Of a stretch of 48,745 nt of DNA, positions 797 to 17,630 are shown piece after piece. The notes beneath the pieces were generated by a model, which had not been told where the DNA came from, did no database searches, and saw nothing but the letters and a program-made list of their open reading frames with translations. Positions within the stretch are counted from its first letter, which is position 1. Each line of letters begins with the position of its first letter. The stretch comes from a virus, in IMG/VR virus record IMGVR_UViG_3300036046_000008. One strand, 5' to 3'. The position numbers and the translations under genes are program-made.

Positions 797-833
797 TAGG
801 GGGTCTCATTATATGCCCTGCAATTTTCGCGCG
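797..833 (-). promoter_or_regulatory. Conserved promoter-like element copy (TATAATGAGACCCCCTAC core)
   Basis: Minus strand reads CGCGCGAAAATTGCAGGGCATATAATGAGACCCCCTAC; abuts the tRNA 3' end and precedes gene 509..778. Confidence 0.6.
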
Positions 834-2396: not shown

Positions 2397-2423
2397 GGCC
2401 GGCGGACAAAACTGTACCCCCAT

Positions 2424-2460
2424 GTAGGGGGTCTCATTATACAACATGTGATTCCCGCGA
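2424..2460 (-). promoter_or_regulatory. Conserved promoter-like element copy
   Basis: Minus strand TCGCGGGAATCACATGTTGTATAATGAGACCCCCTAC; overlaps stop codon of 2437..2895. Confidence 0.55.
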
Positions 2461-2895
2461 GACCGGCCAATAATATGGTAGATCCGCTGGCACCCCCGGC
2501 CACATCAGACTGTATCGACCTGGATCCTTCCGGATGAGATTGCTCTGATGCGAGCGATGAAATTCTTTGATCCCGTGCCACCACGGAACCTGGCGATCCG
2601 GGTATTCCTTTAGCATCTGTGTGAAATATGGCAGTAGAGAGTCTGCGTATCCACGGGTTCGCCAGACTCGGCAGGAGATCAGCCCATATGCGCAAAGCGA
2701 TCCCTCGTAGCCTTGCCACATGCGAGCTGCGGGATGCGTGCGCCACCCCTTAGTCTCCCCACGCAAAGCCTTGAGGATCTGCATCGTCTCGACCCGCTGC
2801 TTTCCAAGGCGTTTTTGGTCTAGACGTGTGAGTGATTCATAATAACCAATCTCAGGCAGAAAAGTGTTGACCATAAATATCTCCCTCCGAGGCAA
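2437..2895 (-). CDS. hypothetical protein
   Basis: Track ORF 152 aa; no motif recognised. Confidence 0.5.
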   Translation of the reverse strand: MPRREIFMVNTFLPEIGYYESLTRLDQKRLGKQRVETMQILKALRGETKGWRTHPAARMWQGYEGSLCAYGLISCRVWRTRGYADSLLPYFTQMLKEYPDRQVPWWHGIKEFHRSHQSNLIRKDPGRYSLMWPGVPADLPYYWPVSRESHVV

Positions 2896-2927
2896 AACTA
2901 AAACCCCTTGTGAGAGTTTTAGTTTTT
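2893..2927 (-). terminator. Terminator-like hairpin (conserved-loop family)
   Basis: Plus AAACTAAAAC-CCCTTGTGAGA-GTTTTAGTTT; between stop of 2938..3195 and start of 2437..2895. Confidence 0.45.
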
Positions 2928-2937
2928 GGCGTCGGCG

Positions 2938-3195
2938 CTACGGCTGCTTACCGTCTACCGCACGTTGGATAGCTCGAGCAATACGTAGAACTCGCATGTC
3001 ATCGTCCATCCAAGCTGCAGAGCTGTCCAAACCAAGTTCGCTAATTAACTCGACTTGCCCGCGCAAATACTCACGACGCATCAGTTGGTCAGCCGTGTGG
3101 TTCAAGGCACAATGCTCGTGCAGACAGATGTCTGTTAGGTCAACACCATCCCATGCACGAGCCGCTGCGTTGACTGCGTCTTGATACGAAACCAT
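2938..3195 (-). CDS. hypothetical protein
   Basis: Track ORF 2938..3303 trimmed to internal ATG with GGAG RBS, because upstream 36 codons overlap 3222..3434. Confidence 0.4.
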   Translation of the reverse strand: MVSYQDAVNAAARAWDGVDLTDICLHEHCALNHTADQLMRREYLRGQVELISELGLDSSAAWMDDDMRVLRIARAIQRAVDGKQP

Positions 3196-3221
3196 AGAAG
3201 TCTCCAAATATAGGTCGGTGA

Positions 3222-3434
3222 TTAGTGGCGAAAAATGGGGTCCAGAGAGAGGAGAACGAATTTGTGCCCTCTGGGTGTGACGTTGGTTCGAATTCCATCC
3301 CAAATAGTGCCTTTAGGCAGGGACAGCGCTCTTTCTGCTTCAGTCACGCTTGCGTAGAGAGTGTTGGTCGTCTTGTCATAGACCATACTCTTAACGCGCC
3401 TGTCAGTCGGATACGGGACGCGGTTTGATCTCAT
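3222..3434 (-). CDS. hypothetical protein
   Basis: Track ORF 70 aa; strong RBS GGAGGA before ATG. Confidence 0.5.
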   Translation of the reverse strand: MRSNRVPYPTDRRVKSMVYDKTTNTLYASVTEAERALSLPKGTIWDGIRTNVTPRGHKFVLLSLDPIFRH

Positions 3435-3447
3435 TAGGTCCTCCGAT

Positions 3448-3480
3448 TTCGTTACACAAGAAGGGGGTTGGTTTTATTCT
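3448..3480 (-). promoter_or_regulatory. Degenerate copy of promoter-like element
   Basis: Minus strand CGCGCAAAACAGAATAAAACCAACCCCCTTC upstream of 3222..3434; weaker match. Confidence 0.3.
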
Positions 3481-3683
3481 GTTTTGCGCGGAGCTGAATT
3501 TGTTTTAACAGGGCCCGGACGATAGCAAATTAAGACGACAACTGATCGAAGTTTGAGCAAATAACCGATACGACGCGTTCCGTCCCAAACCACGCCCGAA
3601 TACAGGTGAGGGTTGTTTGTTTGATAAATATCAATCGTCCGCCCCAAGAGATTTATGTACACCCAATTACGCTGTTTCCGCAT
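3474..3683 (-). CDS. hypothetical protein
   Basis: Track ORF 69 aa; AAGGAGA RBS. Confidence 0.35.
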   Translation of the reverse strand: MRKQRNWVYINLLGRTIDIYQTNNPHLYSGVVWDGTRRIGYLLKLRSVVVLICYRPGPVKTNSAPRKTE

Positions 3684-3948
3684 CTCCAGTCTCCTTAAGA
3701 ACGTCGATTTGATACCAGCGCCCTACCGAGAAGTCATACTTGGGAAACGCAATTGTCCGCGCGTCTTGCGTGCGCATTACAACGTGCATTGGTAGAATAT
3801 ACTCGATCACACCCTGATAGAGCTCGATACTTCCCTGATGCGGCTCGGGACCATCGGGCAGCCAGAGAGTGACTTGCAAGACTGTATTGTTCTTGGCCCA
3901 AATCGCGATTTGCTTATCCATGTCCACGGCGCTTCGGTCAAAGCTCAT
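3667..3948 (-). CDS. hypothetical protein
   Basis: Track ORF 3667..4005 trimmed to ATG at 3948 directly after upstream stop. Confidence 0.45.
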   Translation of the reverse strand: MSFDRSAVDMDKQIAIWAKNNTVLQVTLWLPDGPEPHQGSIELYQGVIEYILPMHVVMRTQDARTIAFPKYDFSVGRWYQIDVLKETGDAETA

Positions 3949-3949
3949 T

Positions 3950-4174
3950 TCAGATTCCCTCCGGTAACGAGATCTCTTCGGGCGTGATGATAACGAGACC
4001 GCCAATTATGCGATCCTTCGTATGGGGGCCAATTCGCAAAAAGTTCTGTTCCTCTTGCGTCAACAAGATATAGCGCAACCACGGGTTATTATCGCGCGCG
4101 GCTATCATCTTGGCGTAGATGGCGCGTCCTAACAATCTGTCAAGAATGATTCGTGTCGGGTCCGATGATTCCAC
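3950..4174 (-). CDS. hypothetical protein
   Basis: Track ORF 74 aa; GTG start with AGGTGAAG RBS. Confidence 0.45.
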   Translation of the reverse strand: MESSDPTRIILDRLLGRAIYAKMIAARDNNPWLRYILLTQEEQNFLRIGPHTKDRIIGGLVIITPEEISLPEGI

Positions 4175-4186
4175 GTCTTCACCTGT

Positions 4187-4438
4187 CTAGTTAAATTTGG
4201 GACGGATTTTACTTTGCTGGTCGGACAAATATCCGCGGTCGTTCGGTTTCTTGCCCGACGGTGTCACACGCACCCATTCGCCTCGGGCGATCATCTTCTC
4301 TTCGTCCTCGGTTGCTGGCCGACGTTTGATCACGGGACCGGCTGCGGTTCCAGCTCCGCCTTTTGTTCCGGGCCGACCTGTGAAAACGACTTCGGGTGTT
4401 CGCCGATTCTTGTACCAGATCAAATCGTGGGTGGACAC
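4187..4438 (-). CDS. hypothetical basic protein
   Basis: Track ORF 83 aa; GTG start 5 nt after GGTAGGAGG RBS; preferred over overlapping Arg-rich frame 4209..4490. Confidence 0.5.
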   Translation of the reverse strand: MSTHDLIWYKNRRTPEVVFTGRPGTKGGAGTAAGPVIKRRPATEDEEKMIARGEWVRVTPSGKKPNDRGYLSDQQSKIRPKFN

Positions 4439-4657
4439 AGCGCCTCCTACCGGATAATCGTGAATATAACCAGGATCCAGACCAAGACAATGAACGTGAT
4501 GACTAGCACGAATAGCAGGTCTTCCACATTTTGCTCTTTTCGCCGCAGGGGTTCCGGGCGCCTGTTGGTCGTTTAAGAGCCGCAGCTAGGTGCGAAACTT
4601 CTTCTGCGGATCCCCGACGAAAAATATAGACCATTGTTCAACGACTAAACAGTCGTT

Positions 4658-4690
4658 GTGGTCTCATTATAGACGATGTAAAATTCGCGA
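4658..4690 (-). promoter_or_regulatory. Conserved promoter-like element copy
   Basis: Minus strand TCGCGAATTTTACATCGTCTATAATGAGACCAC; adjacent perfect 8-bp hairpin at about 4638..4657; no ORF of 60 aa or more downstream. Confidence 0.5.
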
Positions 4691-4692
4691 GG

Positions 4693-4938
4693 CTAGCGCA
4701 TCTTTCTTACCGCCCGTCGAAACGCAACATACCGTTCCTCATGCTTTTCGCTCCACGTCCGTCGAACCGCAGACACGACTACCACGCCAACTCGGGTATA
4801 GCTTCGGGCAGCCCACTCGCAATTTTCCCATTCCGTCTGCCATGTCCGGCGCCATATCGGTTTTTCCCGTTGCACGCGGTAAATAGTAAGATCGGACAAG
4901 TCAACAAGATTACGCCAGAATCGTTTAACCCACATCAA
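4693..4938 (-). CDS. hypothetical protein
   Basis: Track ORF 81 aa; start overlaps upstream stop. Confidence 0.4.
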   Translation of the reverse strand: MMWVKRFWRNLVDLSDLTIYRVQREKPIWRRTWQTEWENCEWAARSYTRVGVVVVSAVRRTWSEKHEERYVAFRRAVRKMR

Positions 4939-5141
4939 CGACTGCGCCCCTGCAAAGTTAGGGCTTCTTGGCGGCCGGCCTCAATAGCGCGTTGGAACCA
5001 GACGGTTAGAGTTTTGTGGTCGGGGACACTCCCCTGAATGCGATCGCCAAAAACCGCGAGAAAATGAGTAGCCCAGTCGCTTGGGTCAGTGTTGAACTCA
5101 TCCATCATCGCCCACATTTTGCTTAGGTGCGACTCGCACAT
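4935..5141 (-). CDS. hypothetical protein (start uncertain)
   Basis: Track ORF 4935..5228 trimmed to first internal ATG; no clear RBS. Confidence 0.3.
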   Translation of the reverse strand: MCESHLSKMWAMMDEFNTDPSDWATHFLAVFGDRIQGSVPDHKTLTVWFQRAIEAGRQEALTLQGRSR

Positions 5142-5310
5142 AATGCTTGTTTGGAACGGCCCAGGTAACGCCGGCCGCAACGCCAAAAGCCACCACAGCT
5201 TGCAGGATCTCACTCCATAGCAGTCCATCGTCGACCAGCGGCACCAGATATGCGATGGCAGCGAACAAGCCCGATAGAAGGGCTTTTCTCGACTCGAGCA
5301 CCAAGTCCAT
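5098..5310 (-). CDS. hypothetical membrane protein
   Basis: Track ORF 5098..5328 starts at TTG; ATG at 5310 has AAAGGAG RBS; hydrophobic segments. Confidence 0.4.
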   Translation of the reverse strand: MDLVLESRKALLSGLFAAIAYLVPLVDDGLLWSEILQAVVAFGVAAGVTWAVPNKHYVRVAPKQNVGDDG

Positions 5311-5404
5311 GACTAATCTCCTTTGCAAGTAGAATATAGGGCGCTCTGTTGAGTCGTTTAAGATGAGCGGTACCGGCGCCGCTCCATCCCCTATCTTTCC
5401 TGTC

Positions 5405-5743
5405 TCAGCTAGTGTGACTGAAGACCTTGACTTCAGGCTCCGGATTGATGAGAACGAGCTCCTCGCCCAGATCAGTCACCGGCTCGAAGTTGCTCTCGAA
5501 TGCGCGAGTGGTATACACCTTGAAGCCTCGTCCCGCGTAGAGAACCCAGTCCCCAGCAAACGCTCGAGTCTGCCCCGTCGACAAGGGGCGCTGCACGTTC
5601 ACCTTGACGAACGGCGTCCTCGATGCGGTGTAACGCACCTCGCCATCGCACCAATCGGCGACATCCTCCAGGTTGTCCTCGGTGACCTGAACGGCCTCGA
5701 CCTCGAACGGCTTACGCTTGTACAGCTCCGGGCTGACACCCAT
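5405..5743 (-). CDS. hypothetical protein
   Basis: Track ORF 112 aa; strong RBS AGGAGA. Confidence 0.65.
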   Translation of the reverse strand: MGVSPELYKRKPFEVEAVQVTEDNLEDVADWCDGEVRYTASRTPFVKVNVQRPLSTGQTRAFAGDWVLYAGRGFKVYTTRAFESNFEPVTDLGEELVLINPEPEVKVFSHTS

Positions 5744-5764
5744 TTGACTTTCTCCTCTTGTGAG

Positions 5765-6043
5765 TCAACGATAATAGACGCCGGCAACGACGACGCCTTT
5801 CCAACGCACTGGCCCAGCGTGCACCTTAGTGGACCAGCTTTTACATTGTGCGAGAACAGGGCAATCGTAGCAGATGTTCTGGGCCTGCCTTACAAGACCC
5901 TGGCGCGCCCAGTTACCTCTGCCGTCAAATATAAACGAGTCTGGAAACTGCGCGCACAACGCATCTCCCATCCATTCATACTTTTTTACAACTTCGAACA
6001 AAGGGCTATATACGTCGCTGTCAAACACTAGCCTCATCCCCAT
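5765..6043 (-). CDS. WhiB-like (Wbl) Fe-S transcription regulator
   Basis: Four-Cys pattern C-x27-C-x2-C-x5-C (DALCAQ ... ICYDCPVLAQC), size typical of Wbl; ATG second codon of track ORF. Confidence 0.55.
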   Translation of the reverse strand: MGMRLVFDSDVYSPLFEVVKKYEWMGDALCAQFPDSFIFDGRGNWARQGLVRQAQNICYDCPVLAQCKSWSTKVHAGPVRWKGVVVAGVYYR

Positions 6044-6509
6044 CAAACTCTGCGTACTTCAGAGCCAATGGGTCTTCGATAATAGTCACGTAGAGCGACT
6101 GCAAATATGCCTTGATTCCGCTTTTACCCTGGACTTTCCATTCATACGGACGGACAATAAGATCGCAGCTCTTAATATCGACCCAATCCAGCATCTCCAC
6201 ATCTGCCTCGGAGAGACGCGTCTGTCCACGAGACGTGATCTGGATGACGGTAGGGGGCCGGCCTTTGAAATTAACCGCGACTGGCAGCCACGGCTGATCA
6301 AGATCGCCTTCCTCTCTTGCCCGCAGGTATTTAATGTTGTAGCCGCAGTCCTCAAGGTGGTCTGCTTCAGACTGCGACGGAATCAGAACGCCGAAGTTTC
6401 GATCTCCTTCTCGATTATACATCCCCTCCTTCCCTGAGAAGTTGCGGAAAATAAGCCGCACATCTTGCATCACAACAGTTGGCTCGCAAGCGCGAAGCTC
6501 ACTACCCAT
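6021..6509 (-). CDS. hypothetical protein
   Basis: Track ORF 162 aa; ATG with AGGAGG RBS. Confidence 0.6.
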   Translation of the reverse strand: MGSELRACEPTVVMQDVRLIFRNFSGKEGMYNREGDRNFGVLIPSQSEADHLEDCGYNIKYLRAREEGDLDQPWLPVAVNFKGRPPTVIQITSRGQTRLSEADVEMLDWVDIKSCDLIVRPYEWKVQGKSGIKAYLQSLYVTIIEDPLALKYAEFDGDEASV

Positions 6510-6523
6510 CTATTCCTCCTGCG

Positions 6524-9500
6524 TTAGCTAACGAACGCTTCGAACGAGCCGAAACGTTCAATGGTGTCTACGGCGTCTTCGACCAGAGCTTGATAGAACG
6601 ATTTATCGATGTTCTGCCATTCCGATGGACCCAATTCCTTAACGACGGCGGCCTCCTTCCAGAAATATCCCTTTGTCCCAGACAGCGCGTACTTGCGCCC
6701 GTCTTTGACTCGGTAAAGCGTACCGCCGCCTGTGCCTTCGCGGACCGGAACGAAGCTTCCAGACCGTCCGACAAAGTGCATACGCTCGTCGCCGAAATCG
6801 ATGTAGATGGCGCCATTGGTTACCGAACGGACTTCGCACAAGTCTTGGAGGTGGATCTCGTCATGCGTGAACAAAGTTCGATAGACATATGGGTGTTGGA
6901 ATTGAGCGCCGACAGCGTCCCATTTGTCGCCTTCTCGGGCGATGTAAACGGCGTCGTTGACAAGACAGAATTTCTCGTATGTCTTCTCGTGGTCGAACGT
7001 GTACCCGTATCGCTCGCCAAATTCGGTTACAAACTGAATAATATCGGGCGTGGCATTAGGGATCTTGACTGAGTCCGTCTTAATATGCACTACCGGGAAG
7101 CCTTGTTCCTGGATGGCATGCTTGAGATCAATCATGAACAAAGCGCCACGCTTCGCGACGATGTTGTCTTTATTTCGAGGATCGCGGAACACCGTATCAA
7201 ATTTGGCACTGGTTAGGCCATAGACAATATTGATGACGATCTTCAACGCATGAGACAAGTCTTTGGCGGACTGGGTATCAGCGTCTGAGATAAAAGAAGC
7301 TAATTTTCCATCTAGCATCTGCGCCGCAGCAGAATAATCGCCTTTCTTAATGGCGAGCCGCGCGTCGAGCAGATCGTTAAAGTTCTTTGTATAAGGCCCG
7401 AACAAATTTAGAAGGCGAATAGACGTCGGGTGCATCGAGGCAACGTCAAGAACCGCAACATTCTCGTACATCCCTGGTTCAGCGTATACGTACCCGCCTT
7501 CACTAGGATCCTCGCCACGGTAAGAGCTTTTGCCGCCCTCGAAAATATAACCCGGAAACAACTCGCTGAGATCTGTATAGACGAATGAGCCTTGAGGAGA
7601 GGGGTCTCCCTCAAATACGATTCGCGCCGTGTGCTTCTGCGTAGTGTCGTTGACGCTGAGCCCGCTGATCGAAGCGAGAATCTGTCTCGCGACAAAGTCC
7701 TGGGCCCTGGACTCCGCGACTTTCTCCGTTGCAACGACATCGTTGGCGCAATAGTCGGCAACTTCGATCCAACGCTCCTCTGGCACCGGCTCGTCCCACG
7801 GGTGGTCGAGCTCTTTGTGGACGATGCCGAGCTCGATCTGGAACTTCTTCAGTCCTTGCTTCTTGGACGAGTAGTCGTACACATCGGCGTAAGATAGCCC
7901 ATACGCCTCGCCGAAGGTGGCGTTGCGGTTCTTGTCCACAATCAAAGCTTGACTGAGTCTATACAAACGCTCATTGTCGTAACCCAAGAACGCAGCGTAC
8001 AAAATATGGTTGTCATAGCGTCTGTTGTTGAACCCCACGAGCTTTTGAGCAAGAAGAGGTTCGATGTCATCGGGCTTCGGATTGATCATCCGCACAACAG
8101 GGTGATCGCCCTCAAACTTCCAACACAACACGAACAGGTTAGGGTACACCTCAACGTCGAAATATACGAGCGCGTCGCCTTCTCCGGAGATAGAGACTGT
8201 ACGATCCTCCGACTTAAACTTCATCTCCCTGACAAGCCGCAGACATTCCAACGGTCGGTTCGTGCTGTTGTTGGCGAAAGCCACGATCGAGGACCGCAGA
8301 TCTGTGACATCATAGCTCAAGTCAGAAGAATATGCGTCATCCAAGACCTTCTTGATGAAGTCGATTGACGACTTCGTGTTAGGATGAATCTCCTTTCTCA
8401 AATTTCGAGCAATCATCTCTCGAAGCCCGCGCTCAGATTTGATCTGTTTGACATCGATCATCTTTCTCTCCTTCATAGGCAACCCGCTTGTGATTTGCGC
8501 AACTTCATGGTCGTTGCATCGCGACAGCCTACGGCGAAGAGACGAGTCCCCGAGCAAAGTTTTAATCTCAATGCCCGGAGAGTACTCGTTATCTAGTTCT
8601 TTGATGTCGCCGTTGTAAATATAATGCAGATGCAGCCCTTTCCCGCTCATACTCAACTCAGTATAGGTTGGCGGCCACGCACTAGCAGCTTCAAGATTCT
8701 TATCGAGGGACTTCTCTCCACTTTCATCGCGCAAATCGAAATCGATCACAATATGATTCTTAGGAATCTTGACGTAATGCACCAGCGAAGTGTCCAGATC
8801 GGTCAGGGTGGTCTTGACTAAGCCCCAACGCTTACTAGGCTTACCTGTTTCTGTGGCGTACTGAGCCGGCATGTCTGCCAAAATATCGTCAAGCAACGAT
8901 CGGCGTTGAGCCAGATTGATTGAGAACGATTTAGGCGACGACGGAGCGACCCCAGTCAACTTCTCCAGCTTGAAGTCTTTGAACAAGCTGTACACCTCCT
9001 GACCGTCGACCATCGTTCTCTCTACGAAATTCTCGTAGTAATTCATCATCTCGTTACGAAATATCTGCATCTGCATCGGTTTGTTGTTTGACTCGGTGCA
9101 GAATTCCTTATACAAAGCATAGGCCCTTTTAAGGGTAATCCCGTCCGGCGCTTTCAACTCGGGCAAATATGCTTCGACGAAGTTGTAGAACACGTTGGTT
9201 GAATACATCATCTTCGTGGGGCGGTAGTTGTCATAATAATTCTTGCCCATGCTTTGATACACTCGAAGACAGTGCGATGCAATAGCGCCGAGTTCAAATT
9301 CGATCCTCGACATCAACACTTGATAATGATCAAACGTGTGCAAATTTCCGGTTGGTTGGACATCGATCAGTCGCCGCAATAAACCAGACCGAGAGTCACT
9401 AATCTTGACGGGGTTGTTAGTGCCCATAAACAGAAACGTGTTGATGCGTACATTATACTGAGATTTATACTTCTCGTTGATCACCATATTCTCATGAGAG

Positions 9501-10225: not shown

Positions 10226-10228
10226 CGG

Positions 10229-10774: not shown

Positions 10775-11550
10775 CCATCATCACTCCGAAACTTTCGGAC
10801 TTTCCGGAAGGCGCGTGCTGCATCGTGCTGCAGACTATCTTCCTCGTCATACCCCAGAACGTTCTTCTCCCACGAGCCGTAGTCGATAGTGATCAGAACG
10901 TCTAGGCGAAGCTGGTCGTTACGAATATAGACACAAACATTGTCGTCCGAATACTCGTCGAAACGACTGAGATCGGCGTATTCCCCAATTGTGCGCTCAG
11001 GCAACGAGACGACGGTATCTGTCTCATCGACTAGAGCTCCGTCTTCTTCGTAATAGGTCCACTCGACCTGAGCATTGCTGGGTTCGTTGTAGCGAAACTC
11101 TTCTTCTGTGATCAAATATGGAGTGCGGCCCGGCTCTGGGCGTTCGTCCGATACCGGATGATAAGACGCTTCTTGCAGTTTTTCGAGTGGGATCGGATCG
11201 TCCTTATTGGGGCCGTCGGCGTTAGAACGCTCCGGCACTGTATAGAGTCGGGCGTAATCTGTATAGACTGCGTAATCGGTGTCGACCTCTCCCAGCGGTG
11301 CCGGCTTGGCGTTCTCCTCGCCGTTTGGGGCCGGCACGACCTCGTATTCCTCTCGCTTATACAGAGTTTTGTAATATAGCTGGGCTCGTTTCACCTCCTT
11401 TTGCAGAATATCCTCAGAGCGCTCTGCCATAGCTTGCCGCACGAGAATTCCGCCCACGGTTGCTCCGACGCCGAGCCCCAACGCGTAGAAGCCAAACGGG
11501 GACGTTACCCTATGAGCAAGCATCGCCCGAATCAGGTTCATAGAATTCAC
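10771..11550 (-). CDS. hypothetical membrane-anchored protein
   Basis: 259 aa; N-terminal hydrophobic helix then acidic domain. Confidence 0.55.
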   Translation of the reverse strand: MNSMNLIRAMLAHRVTSPFGFYALGLGVGATVGGILVRQAMAERSEDILQKEVKRAQLYYKTLYKREEYEVVPAPNGEENAKPAPLGEVDTDYAVYTDYARLYTVPERSNADGPNKDDPIPLEKLQEASYHPVSDERPEPGRTPYLITEEEFRYNEPSNAQVEWTYYEEDGALVDETDTVVSLPERTIGEYADLSRFDEYSDDNVCVYIRNDQLRLDVLITIDYGSWEKNVLGYDEEDSLQHDAARAFRKVRKFRSDDG

Positions 11551-12500
11551 ACCTCTCGAAAGTTAACTCGGTCGACAATGACGCCATCCACGTTAAAATC
11601 GAGAAACACGGACAGCTCGCGCCCGTTTACAAAATCCCGCAAACGCGGATCATCTCCGTGCAGGAACCCGAAGTCAATATAGTTGTCTCCGGTTCCGTCC
11701 TCGTTGATGCGCCAGCCAACAACCTGCCCAGCTTTGGACCGTTCCATTCCGAGCATGTCGTAGACCTCGTTCAGGAACACATGTCCCTTTGCCTTAAGCA
11801 AATCGTTCGCATAGTTCTGCTGAGCGCGCAGGAACAGATAGTTGGCGTGCGGCACGTCCTGCCAATGCTGGTTGTACTCGTCAAAGAAACGAGCATACGG
11901 CGAATATGCGGTCTCTCCGATACGCTTACGCTCAACTACCTCTTTCGAACCTGTGTCTTTGTTCTCGATCGCCACGCGCTCAGAATATGCGTCGTAACGC
12001 AGGTCACGCTCAACTTCCTCACCGAATTCCTGCCGAACCCGATCGCGATACAGCTTGAACGCCCGGTCCAGTCCATTGTATGCCACCGTCAGGGCAGCCA
12101 CACGAGTGTTGAGGATGAAGTGCGCACGAGCAAACGCGGCGACGGTCAGGGTGCCCACCAAGATTGTGGGGGCGTACAGCCGACCCACGTCAACAAAGGT
12201 CCGCGTGTAAATATAGATGCGATCCCGCAGTGCATCTTCCTCCGTATAGTGATGCTTGGCCACCATCTCGGAGTCTTGCTCGACAGTGCGCACGTTCTGC
12301 AGGTCCTGCTGCGTCTTCTGCAGAACCTCATCGACGCGGAGAGTCGCCCGCGACGCCAGAACGGTGGTTGCCGCAAATCCTACCACGCCCGCACCGAACA
12401 GAATATGAGGCGAGTTAACCTTGCCCGCCAAGACCAGCCGCCCCATCTTTTGGGAGACGGCTGGTGACATGGCTTTTCTAATAAGTTGCAACTTGTTCAT
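11547..12500 (-). CDS. membrane protein, paralog of 15329..16117
   Basis: Track ORF trimmed to ATG at 12500 with GAAAGGA RBS; shares N-terminal TM pattern and C-terminal blocks with 15329..16117. Confidence 0.55.
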   Translation of the reverse strand: MNKLQLIRKAMSPAVSQKMGRLVLAGKVNSPHILFGAGVVGFAATTVLASRATLRVDEVLQKTQQDLQNVRTVEQDSEMVAKHHYTEEDALRDRIYIYTRTFVDVGRLYAPTILVGTLTVAAFARAHFILNTRVAALTVAYNGLDRAFKLYRDRVRQEFGEEVERDLRYDAYSERVAIENKDTGSKEVVERKRIGETAYSPYARFFDEYNQHWQDVPHANYLFLRAQQNYANDLLKAKGHVFLNEVYDMLGMERSKAGQVVGWRINEDGTGDNYIDFGFLHGDDPRLRDFVNGRELSVFLDFNVDGVIVDRVNFREV

Positions 12501-12510
12501 CTTAGTCCTT

Positions 12511-13197
12511 TCAGTCCAGTGGTTCGGGTTGCGAGAGATCGAGCAAATATCCGGACGAGATCCGCCGGACTTTGGCGCCACTTAGATCGTACCAACCCCA
12601 ATTGGCGTCGGTGTACGCCGGAGTCAGATCCAGCAGGTTGTAGAGATCTGAGACGGACACGTGCTGATAGCGATCGAGCAGATCATACATCCGATCCAGG
12701 ACTTCGTGCGCCTCGGCCCGTGTTGTTAGAACCACCTCTTCAAAATTGTGGCTAGTACGGGCTCTCCGACTCAACTCTCGGCGAGGCTGTCTGTCGTCCG
12801 GAAAAGGCGGACGCGTTCGGCTACCACGCCCGGCGTACTGCTCGTACTGAGTGTAAACTCGCGGTCGGCCACCACGCCCAGACCGAACTCTCGGATTGTA
12901 GTAGTGACTGTCCCCGAATAAGAGCCGCTCAATTCCGCCGCTCACCGCATCAGTGATCATGTCTTTCGCAGCGGGAATAAGCACGTCAAGAACCACATAC
13001 TGTCGAACGTTCTGCGCATCGGCCCCTAGGAACGTCTCACGGACTCGACTGCCAAGAGACCGTTTTCTACGAACCACACGGTTGACAACGACCTTCTCGA
13101 TCTTCTTGTCTTCAGCCGGCGGGGCGGGAGGAGGCGCCGGCTGCTGGAACGCTGTGCGCGTGTTTGGAGGAAACTCTTCCATAATATAACCTTCCAT
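12511..13197 (-). CDS. hypothetical protein
   Basis: Track ORF 228 aa; Pro-rich N-terminus. Confidence 0.5.
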   Translation of the reverse strand: MEGYIMEEFPPNTRTAFQQPAPPPAPPAEDKKIEKVVVNRVVRRKRSLGSRVRETFLGADAQNVRQYVVLDVLIPAAKDMITDAVSGGIERLLFGDSHYYNPRVRSGRGGRPRVYTQYEQYAGRGSRTRPPFPDDRQPRRELSRRARTSHNFEEVVLTTRAEAHEVLDRMYDLLDRYQHVSVSDLYNLLDLTPAYTDANWGWYDLSGAKVRRISSGYLLDLSQPEPLD

Positions 13198-13202
13198 TAG
13201 TC

Positions 13203-13239
13203 AAAAATAAAAACTAAAGATCCTTGTGGGGATCTTTAG
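13203..13239 (-). terminator. Intrinsic-terminator-like hairpin (conserved-loop family)
   Basis: Plus CTAAAGATCC-TTGTGG-GGATCTTTAG preceded by A-run, so U-tract on minus-strand RNA; downstream of 13253..13516. Confidence 0.55.
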
Positions 13240-13252
13240 CTCTGAGAGGTTC

Positions 13253-13516
13253 TCAGGGGGTAGGGGTGTCCTCAGTCGTTCCAGAGGTGTCAGGATCGAG
13301 GATCGTGCACAGTGCATTGTCAACATAGTTGGCAGCGTACTGTCCGGCAATCGCGCCCAACGTGATGGAGCCGATAGCAATCTGCATTTTCTGCAAAGGG
13401 CTATCGTCTTCCATTCCGTTAGACGAGAAAGTCCGGCTAGTAGCGCCAGCCACACTAGAGGCGACGACATACCGTACAAACGATCGAGCGATCCGAATTT
13501 TGGTCTCGGTGCGCAT
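13253..13516 (-). CDS. hypothetical protein
   Basis: Track ORF 87 aa; promoter element and GAAAGGAAG RBS upstream. Confidence 0.55.
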   Translation of the reverse strand: MRTETKIRIARSFVRYVVASSVAGATSRTFSSNGMEDDSPLQKMQIAIGSITLGAIAGQYAANYVDNALCTILDPDTSGTTEDTPTP

Positions 13517-13533
13517 GGGGATGCTTCCTTTCT

Positions 13534-13570
13534 GTAGGGGGTCTCATTATACGGCATGCAATTTTCGCGA
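13534..13570 (-). promoter_or_regulatory. Conserved promoter-like element copy (closest to consensus)
   Basis: Minus strand TCGCGAAAATTGCATGCCGTATAATGAGACCCCCTAC then GAAAGGAAG then ATG. Confidence 0.6.
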
Positions 13571-13649
13571 GAGACGGGCGCATGTTCAACTCGTGGCGTG
13601 GGCGGTAGCTACGCCAACAGGTTCTTCGGCTGTCGTTTAAAACCAGCAT

Positions 13650-13680
13650 CCGGTATAGGGGCCAACCCCCTACAGGAAAA
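13650..13680 (-). terminator. Hairpin downstream of 13711..14223 (different family)
   Basis: Plus TAGGGG-CCAA-CCCCTA palindrome. Confidence 0.35.
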
Positions 13681-13710
13681 CCCCTTGCTGGCTCCCGTCA
13701 TGCCCTGTGC

Positions 13711-14223
13711 TTACGCGCGATTCTGAAGGTGCGCGAGAAGCTGCTCTCTCGACATCGACTCCAACTCCGCTTGCGACAGTGTCGTCTCTGTGATCTCGGG
13801 CTCAGCCAAAGGAACGGTTTCGACCGTAGCGCGCTGCGCCTGCTGAATAAGATCGTTAGGCATCACCGCCAACATGAACTGAGCGGCCTTCTCCGGATTT
13901 TCGAACAAAGAGAACAGAAACGCGTCATACGCCGCGGTGTCCTTGAACGCCATCCAAATATCATCCGACTTAGAGAAGCGCTGCCCGTCAGCGCTACGCT
14001 CCCCGTAGGATAGCCGCACAATCTCCTTGACCAGTGCCAAAATCTTGGTAAGTTCCGGCAGAGTTACCTCGCGAACGTCCCCCTCGAGCATGGACTGGAT
14101 TTCCTGCATCTTCTCTCCAAGATGCAGATGGTCGACTAGCTCAGTCTTGGTGATGTTGAAATATAGCGTGCTTGTCTGCGTATTCCCGTTGAAATCTTCG
14201 TAGGTGATAGTCTGCTTATACAT
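13711..14223 (-). CDS. hypothetical protein
   Basis: Track ORF 170 aa. Confidence 0.6.
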   Translation of the reverse strand: MYKQTITYEDFNGNTQTSTLYFNITKTELVDHLHLGEKMQEIQSMLEGDVREVTLPELTKILALVKEIVRLSYGERSADGQRFSKSDDIWMAFKDTAAYDAFLFSLFENPEKAAQFMLAVMPNDLIQQAQRATVETVPLAEPEITETTLSQAELESMSREQLLAHLQNRA

Positions 14224-14566
14224 CCTCGTCCTCCGTGTCGTCTGGGTCTGTCCGCGGCGGGTTCAGTTCCTCAACCAGAATCGCATATAACAAAATCAGA
14301 TAGTTAATATGATCGATAATCTTTTCGTCCCACTCTTCGAGCGAGTGGGTATGAGGAGACTTCGCCATATCAAATATCGACACCGTATGCTTCGCCAGCA
14401 TCCCCGCAAGGGCGCCCGGGCGACTTGTATGCTGCAGATTCGCAGCGGTAGTAAAGTTCGCTAGAACGTCGACCTCCTTGGCGTACTCGCCTCGTTTAAA
14501 AGTTAAGACTGACGAGACTTGTTGGAAAATATGCCCCAACAAGGCGTCAAACTCTGCTTTCCTCAA
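14216..14566 (-). CDS. hypothetical protein (start inferred, TTG)
   Basis: Track ORF 14216..14773 has N-terminus overlapping gene 14628..14855 and a hairpin; trimmed to TTG after GGAGGAG RBS. Confidence 0.4.
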   Translation of the reverse strand: MRKAEFDALLGHIFQQVSSVLTFKRGEYAKEVDVLANFTTAANLQHTSRPGALAGMLAKHTVSIFDMAKSPHTHSLEEWDEKIIDHINYLILLYAILVEELNPPRTDPDDTEDEDV

Positions 14567-14580
14567 AACAACTCCTCCCA

Positions 14581-14616
14581 AAGAAAAACTAAAGAGCCTT
14601 GTTAGGGGCTCTTTAG
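14581..14616 (-). terminator. Intrinsic-terminator-like hairpin (conserved-loop family)
   Basis: Plus CTAAAGAGCC-TTGTTAGG-GGCTCTTTAG; U-tract follows on minus strand. Confidence 0.55.
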
Positions 14617-14627
14617 CTTTTGTGGAC

Positions 14628-14855
14628 TCAGATCTCGTCGGGGGTCGACTCGTCCGTCTTCTCCGGCTTGTTCTCGCAGTCGTCCGACTCCTCGGAGGTC
14701 GTCGACGTGAGAGCGTAGCCGAGCAGAAGGCCGGCGGCAAGCGTACCGCCAACAATGGCGACGCGCTTCCCAAGGGCCTTCCAGTCGACCACGATCACGG
14801 TCTTCGACTCGCTAGGAGCGTCGGCCGCGGGAGCGGGGGTCGGGGTGTGGGACAT
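14628..14855 (-). CDS. small membrane protein
   Basis: Track ORF 75 aa; central hydrophobic helix; promoter element upstream. Confidence 0.55.
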   Translation of the reverse strand: MSHTPTPAPAADAPSESKTVIVVDWKALGKRVAIVGGTLAAGLLLGYALTSTTSEESDDCENKPEKTDESTPDEI

Positions 14856-14871
14856 GGTGTTTCCTTCCTGT

Positions 14872-14912
14872 GAGGGGGTTTGGTCTCACTATAGAGGATG
14901 TAATTTTCGCGA
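14872..14912 (-). promoter_or_regulatory. Conserved promoter-like element copy (variant TATAGT)
   Basis: Minus strand TCGCGAAAATTACATCCTCTATAGTGAGACCAAACCCCCTC. Confidence 0.5.
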
Positions 14913-15290
14913 TTACTCGGTCTCGCAGAGCTCGAGAATATACGCTCCCGCCTCGTCAACGACGTCGCCAATTGTCAGATCCTCCGGCAACTTTGCCAGA
15001 AGGTCGTTGTCTGGCGCGAGCTCGGATACCTCACTAACCAAGGTGTCGCGATCCGGCAACTCATCACCCGCAAAGGTGAACAACATGGCGCCCATCTGCT
15101 CTGACGTGTCCACGCCAAAGAAAGCCAGCGCCTGGCAGAATTCCTCGGGGTCCTGCCCACCCTCGTAGAACACCTCATCCAGCTCGGCCCGCATTTCTTC
15201 TTGCCAAGTGGGGCCGCTATCCGCGCAGCCCGCCAAGGTCAAGATGCCGACCGTGGTAATTGCCGCGTACTTGCCAATCTTCTTCCACAT
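14913..15290 (-). CDS. putative lipoprotein
   Basis: 125 aa; signal peptide with lipobox LTLAGC; acidic mature part. Confidence 0.6.
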   Translation of the reverse strand: MWKKIGKYAAITTVGILTLAGCADSGPTWQEEMRAELDEVFYEGGQDPEEFCQALAFFGVDTSEQMGAMLFTFAGDELPDRDTLVSEVSELAPDNDLLAKLPEDLTIGDVVDEAGAYILELCETE

Positions 15291-15304
15291 TGTGATGCTC
15301 CTTT

Positions 15305-15335
15305 AAATATAGGGGGTTTAAATGTTGTCTAACTC
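15305..15335 (-). promoter_or_regulatory. Degenerate copy of promoter-like element
   Basis: Minus strand CATTTAAACCCCCTATATTTAAAGGAGCA before ATG of 14913..15290. Confidence 0.3.
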
Positions 15336-16117
15336 ACACGGTTGTAGTGTCGTGTCGGACTCACCATAAAATCCATGACAATGCACGGCCGATCGTCGTC
15401 TGCCATGGTGGTAGAGAACCGCAACTCCAAGAGCAGGTCTGAATTCCAACCGATGTCGTCAGAGAACTTCGTTAGATCTAGACCAAGTTGATTGTACAGA
15501 TCGCTCAGAGACGCGTAGAAGTCGTTGATGATCTTCTTGTTAATGTAGTTTTCTGCTCTCCTCATTGCCTCCATATCACTGTAGAAATATCGCCCTGCGT
15601 AGAGGTCATAGCACAGCACTGTGCCTACACCTTGAATAATGGGTTGATTGCGAACAGGGTTATCACGTACCCGATCTTGCGCAATCTCGTCTCTCAGTGC
15701 CCGTTCTTTACTTGAGCCCAGCTGCTCGGTAACCTTGTGCTTATACTCGGTGAACGCGCGCTCTGTCAGAGAATATGCAGCGACCATGGCGGCTGTCCGA
15801 CGATTACTGACATATACGGCGGCGATCAGGCACGCGCAAGAGACTACACCACTTGCTACCGCGGGAATATAAAGACGCCACGTCAACGAGACGATGTCTT
15901 CTTGAGCCAACGGTTCGGCAACGACATAGTTCTGAGCTGCGTCGTCTGCCCGCCGGTCTTTCTCCTCCTCGAGAATATAGGCGGCTCGAAAACCGGCTTG
16001 TGACGCAAGCACCGTCGTTGTAACAACCCCGGCAAGCCCTACAGTTGCAAGTAATGTAGGCGCATTGTCGACGAGAAACTTTTGCGACATCCGCATCACA
16101 TCAGTCAACATCGTCAC
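15329..16117 (-). CDS. membrane protein, paralog of 11547..12500 (start uncertain)
   Basis: Track ORF 262 aa; shared TM and C-terminal blocks with 11547..12500. Confidence 0.55.
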   Translation of the reverse strand: MTMLTDVMRMSQKFLVDNAPTLLATVGLAGVVTTTVLASQAGFRAAYILEEEKDRRADDAAQNYVVAEPLAQEDIVSLTWRLYIPAVASGVVSCACLIAAVYVSNRRTAAMVAAYSLTERAFTEYKHKVTEQLGSSKERALRDEIAQDRVRDNPVRNQPIIQGVGTVLCYDLYAGRYFYSDMEAMRRAENYINKKIINDFYASLSDLYNQLGLDLTKFSDDIGWNSDLLLELRFSTTMADDDRPCIVMDFMVSPTRHYNRVS

Positions 16118-16283
16118 TCCTCTCCATCATCTGTTCTAATAGTCGAATTTCACGTTCACGCTTTATTTGGTAATAATATGCTCGCGTCAATAAGACCGTG
16201 ACAAACGAGCATAAGAGAAACGACGTACTGAGAAAGATATATGCCGCTAAAACCCAGATGTCGCCTGGAACCGACGATCTCAC
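16101..16283 (-). CDS. small membrane protein
   Basis: 60 aa; GTG start after AGGAGGA RBS; hydrophobic core. Confidence 0.5.
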   Translation of the reverse strand: MRSSVPGDIWVLAAYIFLSTSFLLCSFVTVLLTRAYYYQIKREREIRLLEQMMERSDDVD

Positions 16284-16399
16284 TGGTCCTCCTGTAGTTG
16301 TCGGCGGTGACGCAGTTCGATCAGATCTTCAGCCATGAGCGACAGGAAATATGGCCCGAACATCAACAGAAGAATAATGGCGGAAATGACGTCGCCCAT
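16280..16399 (-). CDS. small hydrophobic protein (39 aa, not in track)
   Basis: Manual translation MGDVISAIILLLMFGPYFLSLMAEDLIELRHRRQLQEDQ; GAAGGGAAG RBS; stop overlaps next start as GTGA; coordinates approximate. Confidence 0.35.
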   Translation of the reverse strand: MGDVISAIILLLMFGPYFLSLMAEDLIELRHRRQLQEDQ

Positions 16400-16415
16400 T
16401 TGTGCTTCCCTTCAA

Positions 16416-16456
16416 ACAAAAAAAAGAAAACCTTAGCCCCGTGTTAGGGGGCTAAA
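16416..16456 (-). terminator. Intrinsic-terminator-like hairpin (conserved-loop family)
   Basis: Plus A-run then TTAGCCCC-GTGTTA-GGGGCTAA; just downstream of stop of 16461..16643. Confidence 0.5.
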
Positions 16457-16460
16457 GTCA

Positions 16461-16643
16461 TCAGACCTCCAGGTCCTCAAGAGCAGCCTTGAGCTTGGAG
16501 ACGGTCTTGTTCGTCTTGGTCTTCAGATCAGCAACCTCTTGCTCAACCTGCTGCTTACCCTTGACGGCTGCGTATGCAATGCCCAGGGTGGCGGCGAGGT
16601 TGGTAGTGGTCACGATCAGGAGTGCGACGGTGGAGCCGTTCAT
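16461..16643 (-). CDS. small membrane protein
   Basis: Track ORF trimmed to ATG at 16643 (MNGSTVALL...); the track N-terminus is translated promoter sequence. Confidence 0.55.
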   Translation of the reverse strand: MNGSTVALLIVTTTNLAATLGIAYAAVKGKQQVEQEVADLKTKTNKTVSKLKAALEDLEV

Positions 16644-16659
16644 TTCAATCTTCCTTTCG

Positions 16660-16696
16660 GTAGGGGGTCTCATTATACAGCATGCGATTCTCGCGA
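16660..16696 (-). promoter_or_regulatory. Conserved promoter-like element copy
   Basis: Minus strand TCGCGAGAATCGCATGCTGTATAATGAGACCCCCTAC then CGAAAGGAAG. Confidence 0.6.
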
Positions 16697-16709
16697 TGCC
16701 ATCGGCTCC

Positions 16710-16744
16710 AAAAACAAAACCATAGATCCTTGTGGGGATCTATA
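16710..16744 (-). terminator. Intrinsic-terminator-like hairpin (conserved-loop family)
   Basis: Plus ATAGATCC-TTGTGG-GGATCTAT with flanking A-run. Confidence 0.5.
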
Positions 16745-16760
16745 GCTTTAGAACTACTGG

Positions 16761-16904
16761 TTAACGGGTCTTGGCCAAACGGCGCCGAGCAACGATGAGC
16801 AGTCCAACGACGGCCGCGCCGTACGCAACAGTGATAGTGTTGTGAACGGTCGGGCTCTGGTTGTAGTGGTCAACGTTCTTCTGGCAGAGTTCAGTCCAGG
16901 TCAT
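16761..16904 (-). CDS. small protein with C-terminal hydrophobic segment (47 aa, not in track)
   Basis: Manual translation MTWTELCQKNVDHYNQSPTVHNTITVAYGAAVVGLLIVARRRLAKTR; AAGGAGAAG RBS; coordinates approximate. Confidence 0.4.
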   Translation of the reverse strand: MTWTELCQKNVDHYNQSPTVHNTITVAYGAAVVGLLIVARRRLAKTR

Positions 16905-16920
16905 GGTCTTCTCCTTAAGT

Positions 16921-16955
16921 AGTGGGTCTCATTATATGGCATGCAATTTTCGCGA
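16921..16955 (-). promoter_or_regulatory. Conserved promoter-like element copy
   Basis: Minus strand TCGCGAAAATTGCATGCCATATAATGAGACCCACT. Confidence 0.55.
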
Positions 16956-16961
16956 CCTAAC

Positions 16962-16995
16962 CAAGACTAAGACTCCGTGTGGGAGTCTTGTCTTA
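16962..16995 (-). terminator. Hairpin (conserved-loop family)
   Basis: Plus AAGACTCC-GTGTGG-GAGTCTT. Confidence 0.4.
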
Positions 16996-17001
16996 AGACG
17001 G

Positions 17002-17121
17002 CTATCGAACGACAGCCATGTCTTCGATCCGGCGGGTTGCGCGGGTCTGGCGACGCTTCTCTCTAAGGTCTTCGTCAAAGAGATAGGTCACCACAGTCGC
17101 GCGAGCGGCGGAAAGGGTCAT
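17002..17121 (-). CDS. small basic protein (39 aa, not in track)
   Basis: Manual translation MTLSAARATVVTYLFDEDLREKRRQTRATRRIEDMAVVR; GAAAGG RBS; coordinates approximate. Confidence 0.35.
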   Translation of the reverse strand: MTLSAARATVVTYLFDEDLREKRRQTRATRRIEDMAVVR

Positions 17122-17138
17122 GGTCTTTCCTTTCATTA

Positions 17139-17175
17139 GTAGGGGGTCTCATTATACTACGTGTTATTTCCGCGA
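17139..17175 (-). promoter_or_regulatory. Conserved promoter-like element copy
   Basis: Minus strand TCGCGGAAATAACACGTAGTATAATGAGACCCCCTAC. Confidence 0.55.
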
Positions 17176-17235
17176 CCTTCCTACAATTTTTGCTCCGGGG
17201 AATTTTTAGATTTTCAATTTATCCGAAGTGTGGGC

Positions 17236-17268
17236 AAAAGCTAAAACTCCTTGTAGGGAGCTTTAGCC
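17236..17268 (-). terminator. Hairpin (conserved-loop family)
   Basis: Plus CTAAAACTCC-TTGTAG-GGAGCTTTAG; downstream of 17296..17580. Confidence 0.45.
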
Positions 17269-17295
17269 TTTACCTTCAATCGTCCGGGGTTACGG

Positions 17296-17580: not shown

Positions 17581-17593
17581 GGTGCTCCTTTCG

Positions 17594-17630
17594 GTAGAGG
17601 GTGTCATTATATGACGTGTATCAATCGCGG
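17594..17630 (-). promoter_or_regulatory. Conserved promoter-like element copy (variant)
   Basis: Minus strand CCGCGATTGATACACGTCATATAATGACACCCTCTAC then GAAAGGAGCACC ATG. Confidence 0.5.

Follow-up and report, generated by a model that had tools for sequence, protein, structure and literature searches.

Canonical intrinsic terminators consist of a stable hairpin followed by a U-run, are located on the coding strand just past a stop codon, feature an upstream A-tract that pairs with part of the U-run, and give attenuation by partial read-through. Here, we describe eight hairpins of similar build (T1–T8) in the IMG/VR virus record IMGVR_UViG_3300036046_000008, a stretch of 48,745 nucleotides which is referred to as the window in its full length. 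They constitute a real family of covarying and sense-specific hairpins that carry a U-run and lie where small gene cassettes have their 3′ ends, and this family is specific to a phage lineage encoding its own RNA polymerase (RNAP). In contrast to the canonical elements, their sequence is conserved across host genera (CC/GG pairs, an ACA-core loop and the pattern CAAAGC..CCC-CUAACAC-GGG..UUUAGGUUUU), their stems are longer (10–18 bp), have their GC clamp next to the loop and are A/U-rich lower down, and the family is confined to one phage lineage while being absent from other phages of the same hosts.

Further described systems share some of these features. Phage T7, with its T-phi and class I terminators, likewise combines a phage-borne polymerase, a long conserved promoter and a leaky hairpin/U-run terminator; however, the RNAP encoded here is of the two-barrel type (like YonO and RNA-dependent RNA polymerases, RdRP), which is unrelated to T7 RNAP, and eight terminator candidates per genome compare with one or two in T7. 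Morons of lambdoid and HK97-like phages are also autonomous one-gene units between backbone genes and often encode small membrane proteins, whereas the cassettes of the window all draw on a single promoter family and a single terminator family and stand in tandem arrays, which are conserved across a whole, apparently lytic, group of phages. RNA hairpins with a conserved loop are moreover known from lambda nut boxB, which has a short stem and a GNRA-like loop, and from HK022 put, both being read by the transcription machinery. These are promoter-proximal, lack a U-run and suppress termination, while the hairpins of the window are gene-distal and carry a U-run; none of the eight shows the nut/boxB features, and the sole promoter-proximal hairpin, in a leader at 2432–2416, also has a T-run. 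In the Gordonia cluster DJ phage Vardy, a relative, the promoter motif of the window was reported as a 50-bp motif (TATAAT GAGACCCC...) and read as a host sigma-70 promoter, and the corresponding region of small transmembrane (TM) genes was listed with predicted terminators, without remark on a shared sequence (PMC9671010, the sole paper found on this motif). The shared sequence and loop of the hairpins, their covariation and their distribution are absent from that note.

The phage of the window is a siphovirus, represented by a complete circular assembly, and belongs to an actinophage “supercluster” including Arthrobacter clusters AM/AU, cluster DJ from Gordonia, cluster CC from Rhodococcus and cluster BI from Streptomyces. 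This supercluster was described for AM/AU/AW, DJ, CC, BI and EL, and its RNAP carries YonO/crAss-like polymerase motifs and two helix-turn-helix (HTH) domains (bioRxiv 10.1101/842583). For YonO itself the promoter is unknown, and such enzymes lack the flap domain of hairpin-dependent pausing and termination (PMC5467207).

Results

All eight hairpins that an initial annotation of the window had located are present on the minus (coding) strand. They are terminator-like, located past a stop codon and ahead of whichever promoter or gene comes next, and each site folds into a stable RNA structure (−14 to −27 kcal/mol; z −4.4 to −6.9 against dinucleotide shuffles). Stems comprise 12–18 bp including G-U pairs, loops 5–8 nt, and the distance from stop codon to hairpin start is 1–21 nt in all cases. 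In a MAFFT alignment of the eight copies (A1), loop and closing pairs read C..ACA.GG without exception, and the copies have a consensus of AAAGCTAAAGATCC-CCACAA-GGAGTTTTAGTTTT and the shared pattern AAAGCTAAAG..CC-loop-GG..CTTTAGTTTT with CTAAAG-type stem bases. When a covariance model trained on these eight copies alone (R1) was run over the whole window with filters off, the minus-strand family consisted of exactly eight copies (31–50 bits, E <= 3e-5). Plus-strand matches at six of the eight sites were much weaker (10.5–23.7 bits), and the other weak matches were a 17-bit promoter-leader hairpin at 2441–2401 and a 9.9-bit match at 48085–48128 (E 7.4). The R1 scan placed no family hairpin within the ~27-kb structural operon. 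Rfam at gathering score identified only a tRNA in the whole window, and a permissive Rfam scan of 12900–17400 gave sub-threshold chance matches only (E >= 0.36).

The individual copies, all on the minus strand and with bit scores from R1, differ in their details. T1 (17233–17274; 41.8 bits; −27.4 kcal/mol, z −6.9) comes after a 94-aa open reading frame (ORF) with its stop at 17296; its inner stem GCTAAAGCTCC/GGAGTTTTAGC encloses the loop CUACAA and is lengthened to 18 bp by GGUAAAGG-CUUUUGCC pairing. T2 (16961–16996; 31.1 bits, z −4.8), located 3′ of a 39-aa ORF, has the loop CACAC, one unpaired base and a weak U-tract, and the TATAAT of a promoter lies 25 nt further downstream. T3 (16715–16750; 49.4 bits; loop CCACAA, tail UUUUGUUUUU) follows a 47-aa one-TM ORF, while T4 (16429–16459; 35.4 bits; loop CUAACAC, tail UUUUCUUUUUUUU) starts 1 nt past the stop of a 60-aa one-TM ORF, and T5 (14584–14621; 39.9 bits; loop CCUAACAA) lies after a 75-aa one-TM ORF and 17 nt ahead of the next gene start. 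T6 (13210–13243; 49.9 bits; loop CCACAA) comes after an 87-aa small gene, T7 (2894–2926; 41.3 bits; loop (U)CACAA(G)) starts 11 nt beyond the stop of an 85-aa ORF (3195–2938), and T8 (462–494; 38.6 bits; loop CACAC, two G-U pairs) is placed between an 89-aa one-TM ORF (778–509) and ~450 nt of non-coding repeats. The U-tract ascribed earlier to most of the hairpins is clear for T3–T8 (at least four U), but is poor in T2 and partly paired in T1. Downstream of T1–T3 a promoter motif follows within 25–76 nt; T4–T7 are followed within 17–29 nt by the start of a gene without a promoter motif of its own.

Searching relatives with R1 considerably extended the family. In 67 related loci (61 IMG/VR contigs and six cultured phages), 77 matches were obtained at E <= 1, 72 of them on the sense strand, and 80 metagenome loci contributed 39 matches at E <= 0.1 (38 sense). 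In total, about 110 further sense-strand copies exist outside the window, in relatives with proteins of ~50–60% identity; in ReqiPepy6, Circum, Conley and Scap1, the matches range from a 2-nt overlap with the end of an annotated coding sequence to ~22 nt past it. An alignment of R1 matches (A2; 73 distinct rows) has the consensus CAAAGC-Y-NA-A-RN-CCC-[CU][CUA]-ACA[AC]-GGG..UUUAGGUUUU-CG, with 91.5% of cells paired and both-side changes in 12 of the 14 pairs. Double-change cells amounted to 152 versus 52.6 ± 5.3 in shuffles, none of 500 shuffles reaching this value, and pairing fell to 63–65% when the 3′ partner was slid by one column. In the paired columns, G-U (109; ~12% of pairs on the sense strand) strongly exceeds A-C (18); what is selected is therefore the structure on the sense strand, rather than a palindrome in the DNA or a hairpin of the template strand.

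The loop is conserved along with the structure. ACA is contained in the loops of 65 out of 77 distinct hairpins (37 sources) and CC/GG closing pairs are found in 67; across the family, loops are 4–9 nt long, consist of A+C to 72% and vary around ACA, with CUAACAC, CUACAA and CCACAA as kept types. Since R1 itself contains the loop, we also surveyed 75 loci with the promoter motif (1.62 Mb) by structure only, collecting T-tailed hairpins with stems of at least 11 bp. Such hairpins were found 131 times in sense and 25 times in antisense orientation, and ACA loops made up 41% of the sense set compared to 9.5% in other hairpin classes (Fisher p = 4e-17), or 54 observed versus 31.8 ± 4.3 under loop-letter shuffling. 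CUAACAC was the commonest loop (15 distinct hairpins), and the A/C-rich loop family also appeared in hairpins sampled, independently of their loops, upstream of promoter motifs. In Gordonia phage Conley, the long T-tailed hairpins have unrelated stems and the loops CUAACAC (twice), CUAACCC, CUACAA and CACAC. The initial annotation had made its proposal of a recognised RNA element depend on the loop being conserved in related genomes; in fact, the ACA-type loop is kept while the stems covary, and the CC/GG-closed ACA loop is under purifying selection.

Direct evidence of stem covariation with loop retention at one locus comes from the site of T6 in phages of four host groups. The 87-aa ORF preceding T6 (13253–13516, minus strand) is homologous to ReqiPepy6 gp066, Scap1 gp36 and Conley gp55, sharing the motif VG.GTS(R/K)I...GS.V.G.MAAD..YTD..ID, and the corresponding loci of small gene plus hairpin lie at 26822–27201 (L064), 21776–22111 (L065) and 39048–39375 (L001). 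The order is the same in all four phages: a promoter motif of its own, the small gene, the hairpin and then a replication operon without promoter motif, which in the window is tightly packed, comprises the conserved backbone genes phrog_4079, 2152, 4695 and 4678 and leads to the DNA polymerase. While the stems differ (GCUAAAGAUCC, CAGCAAACCC, UUGAAAAGCC and CUGAAACCC), ACA(A/C) in the loop and the U-run are retained in all four, and RNAalifold predicted 12 pairs, four of them with compensatory changes.

The second conserved element is a putative promoter of ~35 nt, TCGCG-AAAATT-GCATG-N3-TATAAT-GAGACCCCCTAC-N-GAAAGGA-N-ATG, for whose conserved family TATAATGAGACC serves as shorthand. It is present in nine copies with TATAAT at 17611, 17156, 16936, 16677, 13551, 4671, 2441, 2387 and 813, plus one TATAGT variant at 14893, all on the sense (minus) strand. 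Seven copies precede ORFs closed by a hairpin, namely those at 17592–17631 (94-aa ORF, T1; TATAAT 17611–17606), 17137–17176 (39-aa ORF, T2; TCGCGGAAATAACACGTAG-TATAAT-GAGACCCCCTAC with TATAAT 17156–17151), 16917–16956 (47-aa ORF, T3; TATAAT 16936–16931), 16658–16697 (60-aa ORF, T4; TATAAT 16677–16672), 13532–13571 (87-aa ORF, T6; TATAAT 13551–13546) and 794–833 (89-aa ORF, T8; TATAAT 813–808, abutting the 3′ end of a tRNA-Lys gene), as well as the variant at 14874–14912 (75-aa ORF, T5), directly read as TCGCGAAAATTACATCCTC-TATAGT-GAGACCA. The seven resulting units (17631–17233, 17176–16961, 16956–16715, 16697–16429, 14912–14584, 13571–13210 and 833–462) show the moron-type layout of predicted promoter, single ORF and predicted terminator, as far as activity can be deduced from sequence; their ORFs span 39–94 aa, and five of the seven contain a hydrophobic helix. 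The unit closed by T7 is longer. One-gene units of this layout also occur in ReqiPepy6, Circum, Conley and Scap1.

Two of the remaining promoter copies have leaders that fold. In the leader at 2401–2441 (minus strand), the hairpin at 2432–2416 (ACCCCC-UACA-UGGGGGU, then ACAGUUUUGU) lies ~10 nt past the TATAAT box, with the promoter copy at 2387 directly behind it; possible interpretations are an attenuator, a short RNA and a new terminator that arose when the leader was duplicated in inverted orientation. The copy at 4671 has a divergent leader (4620–4671, minus strand; GAGACCACAACGACTGTTTAGTCGTTG) folding as AACGACU-GUUU-AGUCGUU ahead of the first ORF. The idea that the hairpin 5′ arm and loop, CCCCUA(A)CA, are a copy of the promoter leader GAGACCCCCUACA was rejected, since the similarity of their position weight matrices did not exceed that of column-shuffled controls (p = 0.35).

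The distribution of both elements follows the phage lineage. Unrelated phages that share these hosts, namely REQ1 (R. equi) and Bennie (Arthrobacter sp. ATCC 21022), gave no R1 match at E <= 10 over 93 kb, compared to 13 sense matches (E < 0.06) in 99 kb of ReqiPepy6 and Circum. When 50,697 phage records were searched by BLAST with the consensus of either element, terminator or promoter, this yielded phages of Arthrobacter, Gordonia, Streptomyces, Rhodococcus and Microbacterium and the oral “Siphovirus contig89” phages, the matches being essentially confined to groups with the RNAP gene; in supercluster phages they lie on the plus strand in un-annotated intergenic DNA, and the few others are at chance level. 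A terminator style determined by the host is ruled out by these control phages and the BLAST distribution. The Faecalibacterium phage FP_oengus (locus L067, 2448–22889) has its own T-tailed family of ~12 copies, GAGCUnnGGA-GAAA-UCnnnAGCUC-UUUU, with a covarying middle stem, and GAAA loops are found in other low-GC contigs as well. Across the branches, loop type, promoter subtype and host phylum vary together. A single hairpin with the actinophage-type loop CUAACAA occurs in FP_oengus at 27608–27632, just before the promoter that precedes the Cas4-RNAP genes.

The initial annotation had mentioned a phage RNAP-like protein, an assignment supported by the 893-aa product of 44540–47221 (minus strand). 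This two-barrel RNAP homologue matches phrog_4291 (“RNA-dependent RNA polymerase”) with E = 0, carries GADFDGD at residues 514–520 and is flanked by an N-terminal lambda-cI/sigma-4-like HTH and a C-terminal HTH. Sequence searches of the PDB returned HTH matches only, apart from phage beta′ subunits, which the GADFDGD region matched at E~1. By tblastn, homologues with 50–58% identity were found in at least 250 phage records (Arthrobacter, Gordonia, Streptomyces, Rhodococcus, Curtobacterium, Microbacterium); identity is 55–58% to the proteins of Streptomyces, Arthrobacter and Gordonia phages and 37–44% to those of Lactococcus and Faecalibacterium phages. The annotation of the ReqiPepy6 record likens the homologue to a Lactococcus phage 1706 protein that is structural, and the polymerase may therefore be packaged in the virion. 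The 2011 paper on ReqiPepy6 may mention promoters and terminators of this phage.

With respect to the genome as a whole, an exact overlap of 127 nt (1–127 = 48619–48745) indicates a circular (or terminally redundant) assembly of ~48.6 kb, and synteny with relatives suggests that the physical genome likely ends near 44050–44260, beyond the small gene after the RNAP gene. All credible genes are on the minus strand. PHROG and Pfam scans identified the large terminase (34937–33192), the portal (31577–30285), a 661-aa protease-capsid fusion (29655–27670; phrog_3270, Peptidase_S78 and Phage_capsid), the tape measure (24102–19837), a minor tail protein (19018–17834) and a primase-polymerase as DNA polymerase (10225–6524; 1233 aa, phrog_4210). 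As in relatives, an HNH endonuclease (48689–48153) and an exonuclease (47796–47236) are encoded upstream of the RNAP gene, in this order. Hence, the traits of the supercluster are present: a two-barrel RNAP gene with DxDGD and flanking HTH, the primase-polymerase, the protease-capsid fusion, a single-strand gene layout and a central array of small TM genes. The one-ORF fusion of prohead protease and major capsid protein matches reports for Arthrobacter clusters AM and AU. Megablast of the 12–18 kb region against the 50,697 phage records gave no match, and a close relative is absent from the phage, IMG/VR and metagenome collections, DNA-polymerase matches reaching at most 64% identity; searches of IMG/VR and the metagenomes with the minor tail protein found nothing.

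Some further observations concern the surroundings of the cassettes. The tRNA-Lys(UUU) gene (833–906, minus strand) lies 8 nt after the helicase gene, and its 3′ end adjoins the CGCGAAAATT part of the promoter at 813. Two phrog_2152 paralogues are encoded on the minus strand, one in the cassette region (15329–16111, with two hydrophobic segments) and one in the replication operon (11547–12500). The stretch of ~450 nt that separates T8 from the HNH-exonuclease-RNAP operon (100–450 in plus coordinates, continuing over the circular junction) is non-coding and contains AGGGTCGGGAAAA twice in tandem, three repeats of the ATATTTTTCCCG(N)TTTCCCGACC type and three of CCNAAATGTCCG(A/T)TTTGT; this region could be an origin or a regulatory region.

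Discussion

The eight hairpins are probably leaky intrinsic-type terminators or attenuators acting in minus-strand RNA. They combine the features of intrinsic terminators, i.e., a stable sense-strand stem-loop, a U-rich tract 3′ of the stem and a position after a coding region. In the nascent RNA, hairpin and U-run would halt transcription after each cassette, and seven of the hairpins would close units consisting of the ~35-nt promoter, a small ORF and the hairpin itself. Since T4–T7 stand directly before genes without a promoter motif, including the replication operon after T6, such terminators would have to be leaky and would consequently also set the ratio of cassette to downstream expression; T6 could then serve as an attenuator in front of the replication genes. 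Together, hairpin and promoter form a lineage-specific pair of cis-elements, and the loop may be read by the polymerase or a cofactor, or be held by a constraint on folding or nuclease resistance.

The promoter motif bears on the question of which polymerase is stopped. Its conservation spans ~35 nt, much more than a -10 hexamer, and a -35 element is missing at the spacing of sigma-70 promoters. Gordonia phages (11 copies), Rhodococcus phages (12 copies) and Arthrobacter phages have the motif in near-identical form, and in those of Streptomyces TATAGT replaces TATAAT. The Clostridia phage FP_oengus, whose RNAP belongs to the same family (44% identity), also contains the upstream half of the motif, CGCGAAAA.TGCATG. 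At least 13 sense-only copies of RCGCGAAAAA-N3-CA-N5-CYTTTATGGARG are present there; in a gap-free alignment, they agree with the motif of the window at 18 of 31 positions, and their AT-rich box, TTTATGG, does not resemble that of sigma-A. A tRNA predicted by ARAGORN in FP_oengus starts at the last G of one such box, which requires initiation to abut the box instead of occurring 6–8 nt beyond it. On this evidence, which we regard as moderate, it is somewhat more likely than not that the phage's own polymerase uses the motif as its promoter and is the enzyme on which the hairpins act. Likewise, the occurrence of hairpin and promoter throughout a supercluster with its own single-subunit RNAP suggests that the stopped polymerase is probably the phage enzyme and not the host RNAP.

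Several points weigh against this picture of phage-specific, leaky terminators. The perfect TATAAT (TATAGT in Streptomyces phages) fits the -10 element of host sigma-A, in which case the hairpins would be ordinary terminators of the host RNAP. The GAAA loops of the Firmicutes branch imply that the ACA loop is a trait of the actinophage branch and not a requirement of the polymerase family. In actinophage relatives, the ACA loop is found in only ~40% of the structure-defined T-tailed hairpins, and retrieval by R1 is biased toward the window consensus. Regarding termination itself, the U-tract of T2 is poor, the U-run of T1 is partly sequestered in its stem, and the stem bases beside the U-run are A/U-rich instead of GC-rich, which is atypical of strong intrinsic terminators. 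A literature search for a transcriptome of any supercluster phage found none.

That the loop is specifically recognised, or termination regulated, is plausible, if tentative. The ACA loop and the CC/GG top could be read by the two-barrel RNAP or a phage cofactor, making the hairpin a cognate terminator, a pause or an antitermination signal, a proposal that we place on the doubtful side; termination at T4–T7 would then be regulated, e.g., by switching on the replication operon after T6. Across phages from no fewer than four host genera, the stems vary more than loop and closing pairs do, and the elements co-distribute with the RNAP gene and its probable promoter. Moreover, the succession of promoter, small gene, hairpin and replication operon without promoter motif is kept in the window, Scap1, ReqiPepy6 and Conley, an arrangement at T6 which calls for controlled read-through. 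As YonO-type enzymes lack the flap and other domains of hairpin-dependent termination (PMC5467207), a different read-out is conceivable. However, a candidate RNA-binding factor was not identified, loops vary in length (4–9 nt) and in the sequence around ACA, the Firmicutes branch has GAAA loops, and a hairpin with a U-run suffices for factor-independent termination. Equally tentative is the wider proposal that the ACA-loop hairpin and TCGCR-N-ATTNCA-N-TATAAT-GAGACCCC are the cognate terminator and promoter of the supercluster RNAP, with the loop and CC/GG top being read by the enzyme or a partner.

Two specific candidates for a loop function were rejected. A CsrA site came into question because ACAAGGA(U), the core of the CsrA consensus RUACARGGAUGU from systematic evolution of ligands by exponential enrichment (SELEX), is present in T1, T3 and T6, but the family consensus is ACA[AC]GGG and its GG is base-paired; to our knowledge, CsrA is not known in Actinobacteria. 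A mimic of an anticodon loop (CUAACAC as C32 U33 AAC A37 C38) is ruled out by the loop lengths.

A post-transcriptional role, with the hairpins serving as 3′-end stabilisers or processing sites of small-gene mRNAs instead of polymerase stops, is unlikely. It would agree with stable hairpins directly 3′ of ORFs, with T4–T7 lying inside apparent operons whose downstream genes still need to be transcribed and with a conserved single-stranded loop, which could be a nuclease or protein site. Yet, a mere stabiliser would not need the sense-biased T-runs (131 versus 25), the hairpins often stand directly before a fresh promoter (T1–T3 and many relatives), and sites of the RNase III type would have longer and less perfect stems.

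Slightly less probable still is that the family reflects spread and not function, i.e., that hairpin and promoter form a cassette-boundary repeat copied by duplication or recombination upon gain, loss or shuffling of small genes, in the manner of morons, repetitive extragenic palindromic (REP) elements or attC. Stems are indeed alike within a genome (CTAAAG... in the window, AAGCCYGAACCCC in L055, L036 and L035, GAGCT...AGCTC in FP_oengus), no part of these genomes varies more than the small genes that the elements flank (bioRxiv 10.1101/842583; PMC5513430), and the promoter leader at 2441–2401 exemplifies the creation of a hairpin by inverted duplication. However, copying does not account for the orthologous site, where four phages have compensatory stem changes and a kept loop, nor for the strict sense orientation, the bias of G-U over A-C and the T-runs; we rather regard it as a by-product of evolution that would go together with a terminator function. 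Among the 20 larger ORFs scanned, a scan that was not exhaustive, no integrase, Y1 transposase or integron integrase was found.

N4 hairpin promoters have a stem of 5–7 bp and a loop of 3 nt. The initial annotation had considered, as its less likely option, hairpin promoters of this N4 virion-RNAP type, and a role at the DNA level, be it as such promoters, as initiation signals of the primase-polymerase or as protein-binding palindromes, is highly improbable: although the phage has its own RNAP (its 1706 homologue being annotated as structural) and a primase-polymerase, the sense-strand G-U pairs would become A-C mismatches on the template strand, antisense R1 scores are 20–40 bits lower, stems of 10–18 bp and loops of 5–8 nt are unlike those of N4, and the sites lie 3′ of genes, have T-runs and are accompanied by a separate linear promoter.

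The preferred reading, leaky terminators paired with a lineage-specific promoter, has consequences for the annotation and the biology of these phages. The central array of small membrane genes would be explained as a series of insulated one-gene cassettes, and both elements improve the annotation of gene boundaries in supercluster phages. At least 250 phages and many soil metagenome contigs carry the RNAP homologue, mostly annotated as “helix-turn-helix protein,” for which the shared promoter and terminator now represent concrete templates. If the pair is polymerase-specific, it would provide a compact orthogonal promoter/terminator expression system across Actinobacteria. On the mechanistic side, the question arises how a polymerase without flap and lid domains responds to a hairpin and why the loop is conserved. 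Should the pair indeed be cognate to this RNAP, it would be the first defined termination signal for YonO/crAss-type polymerases.

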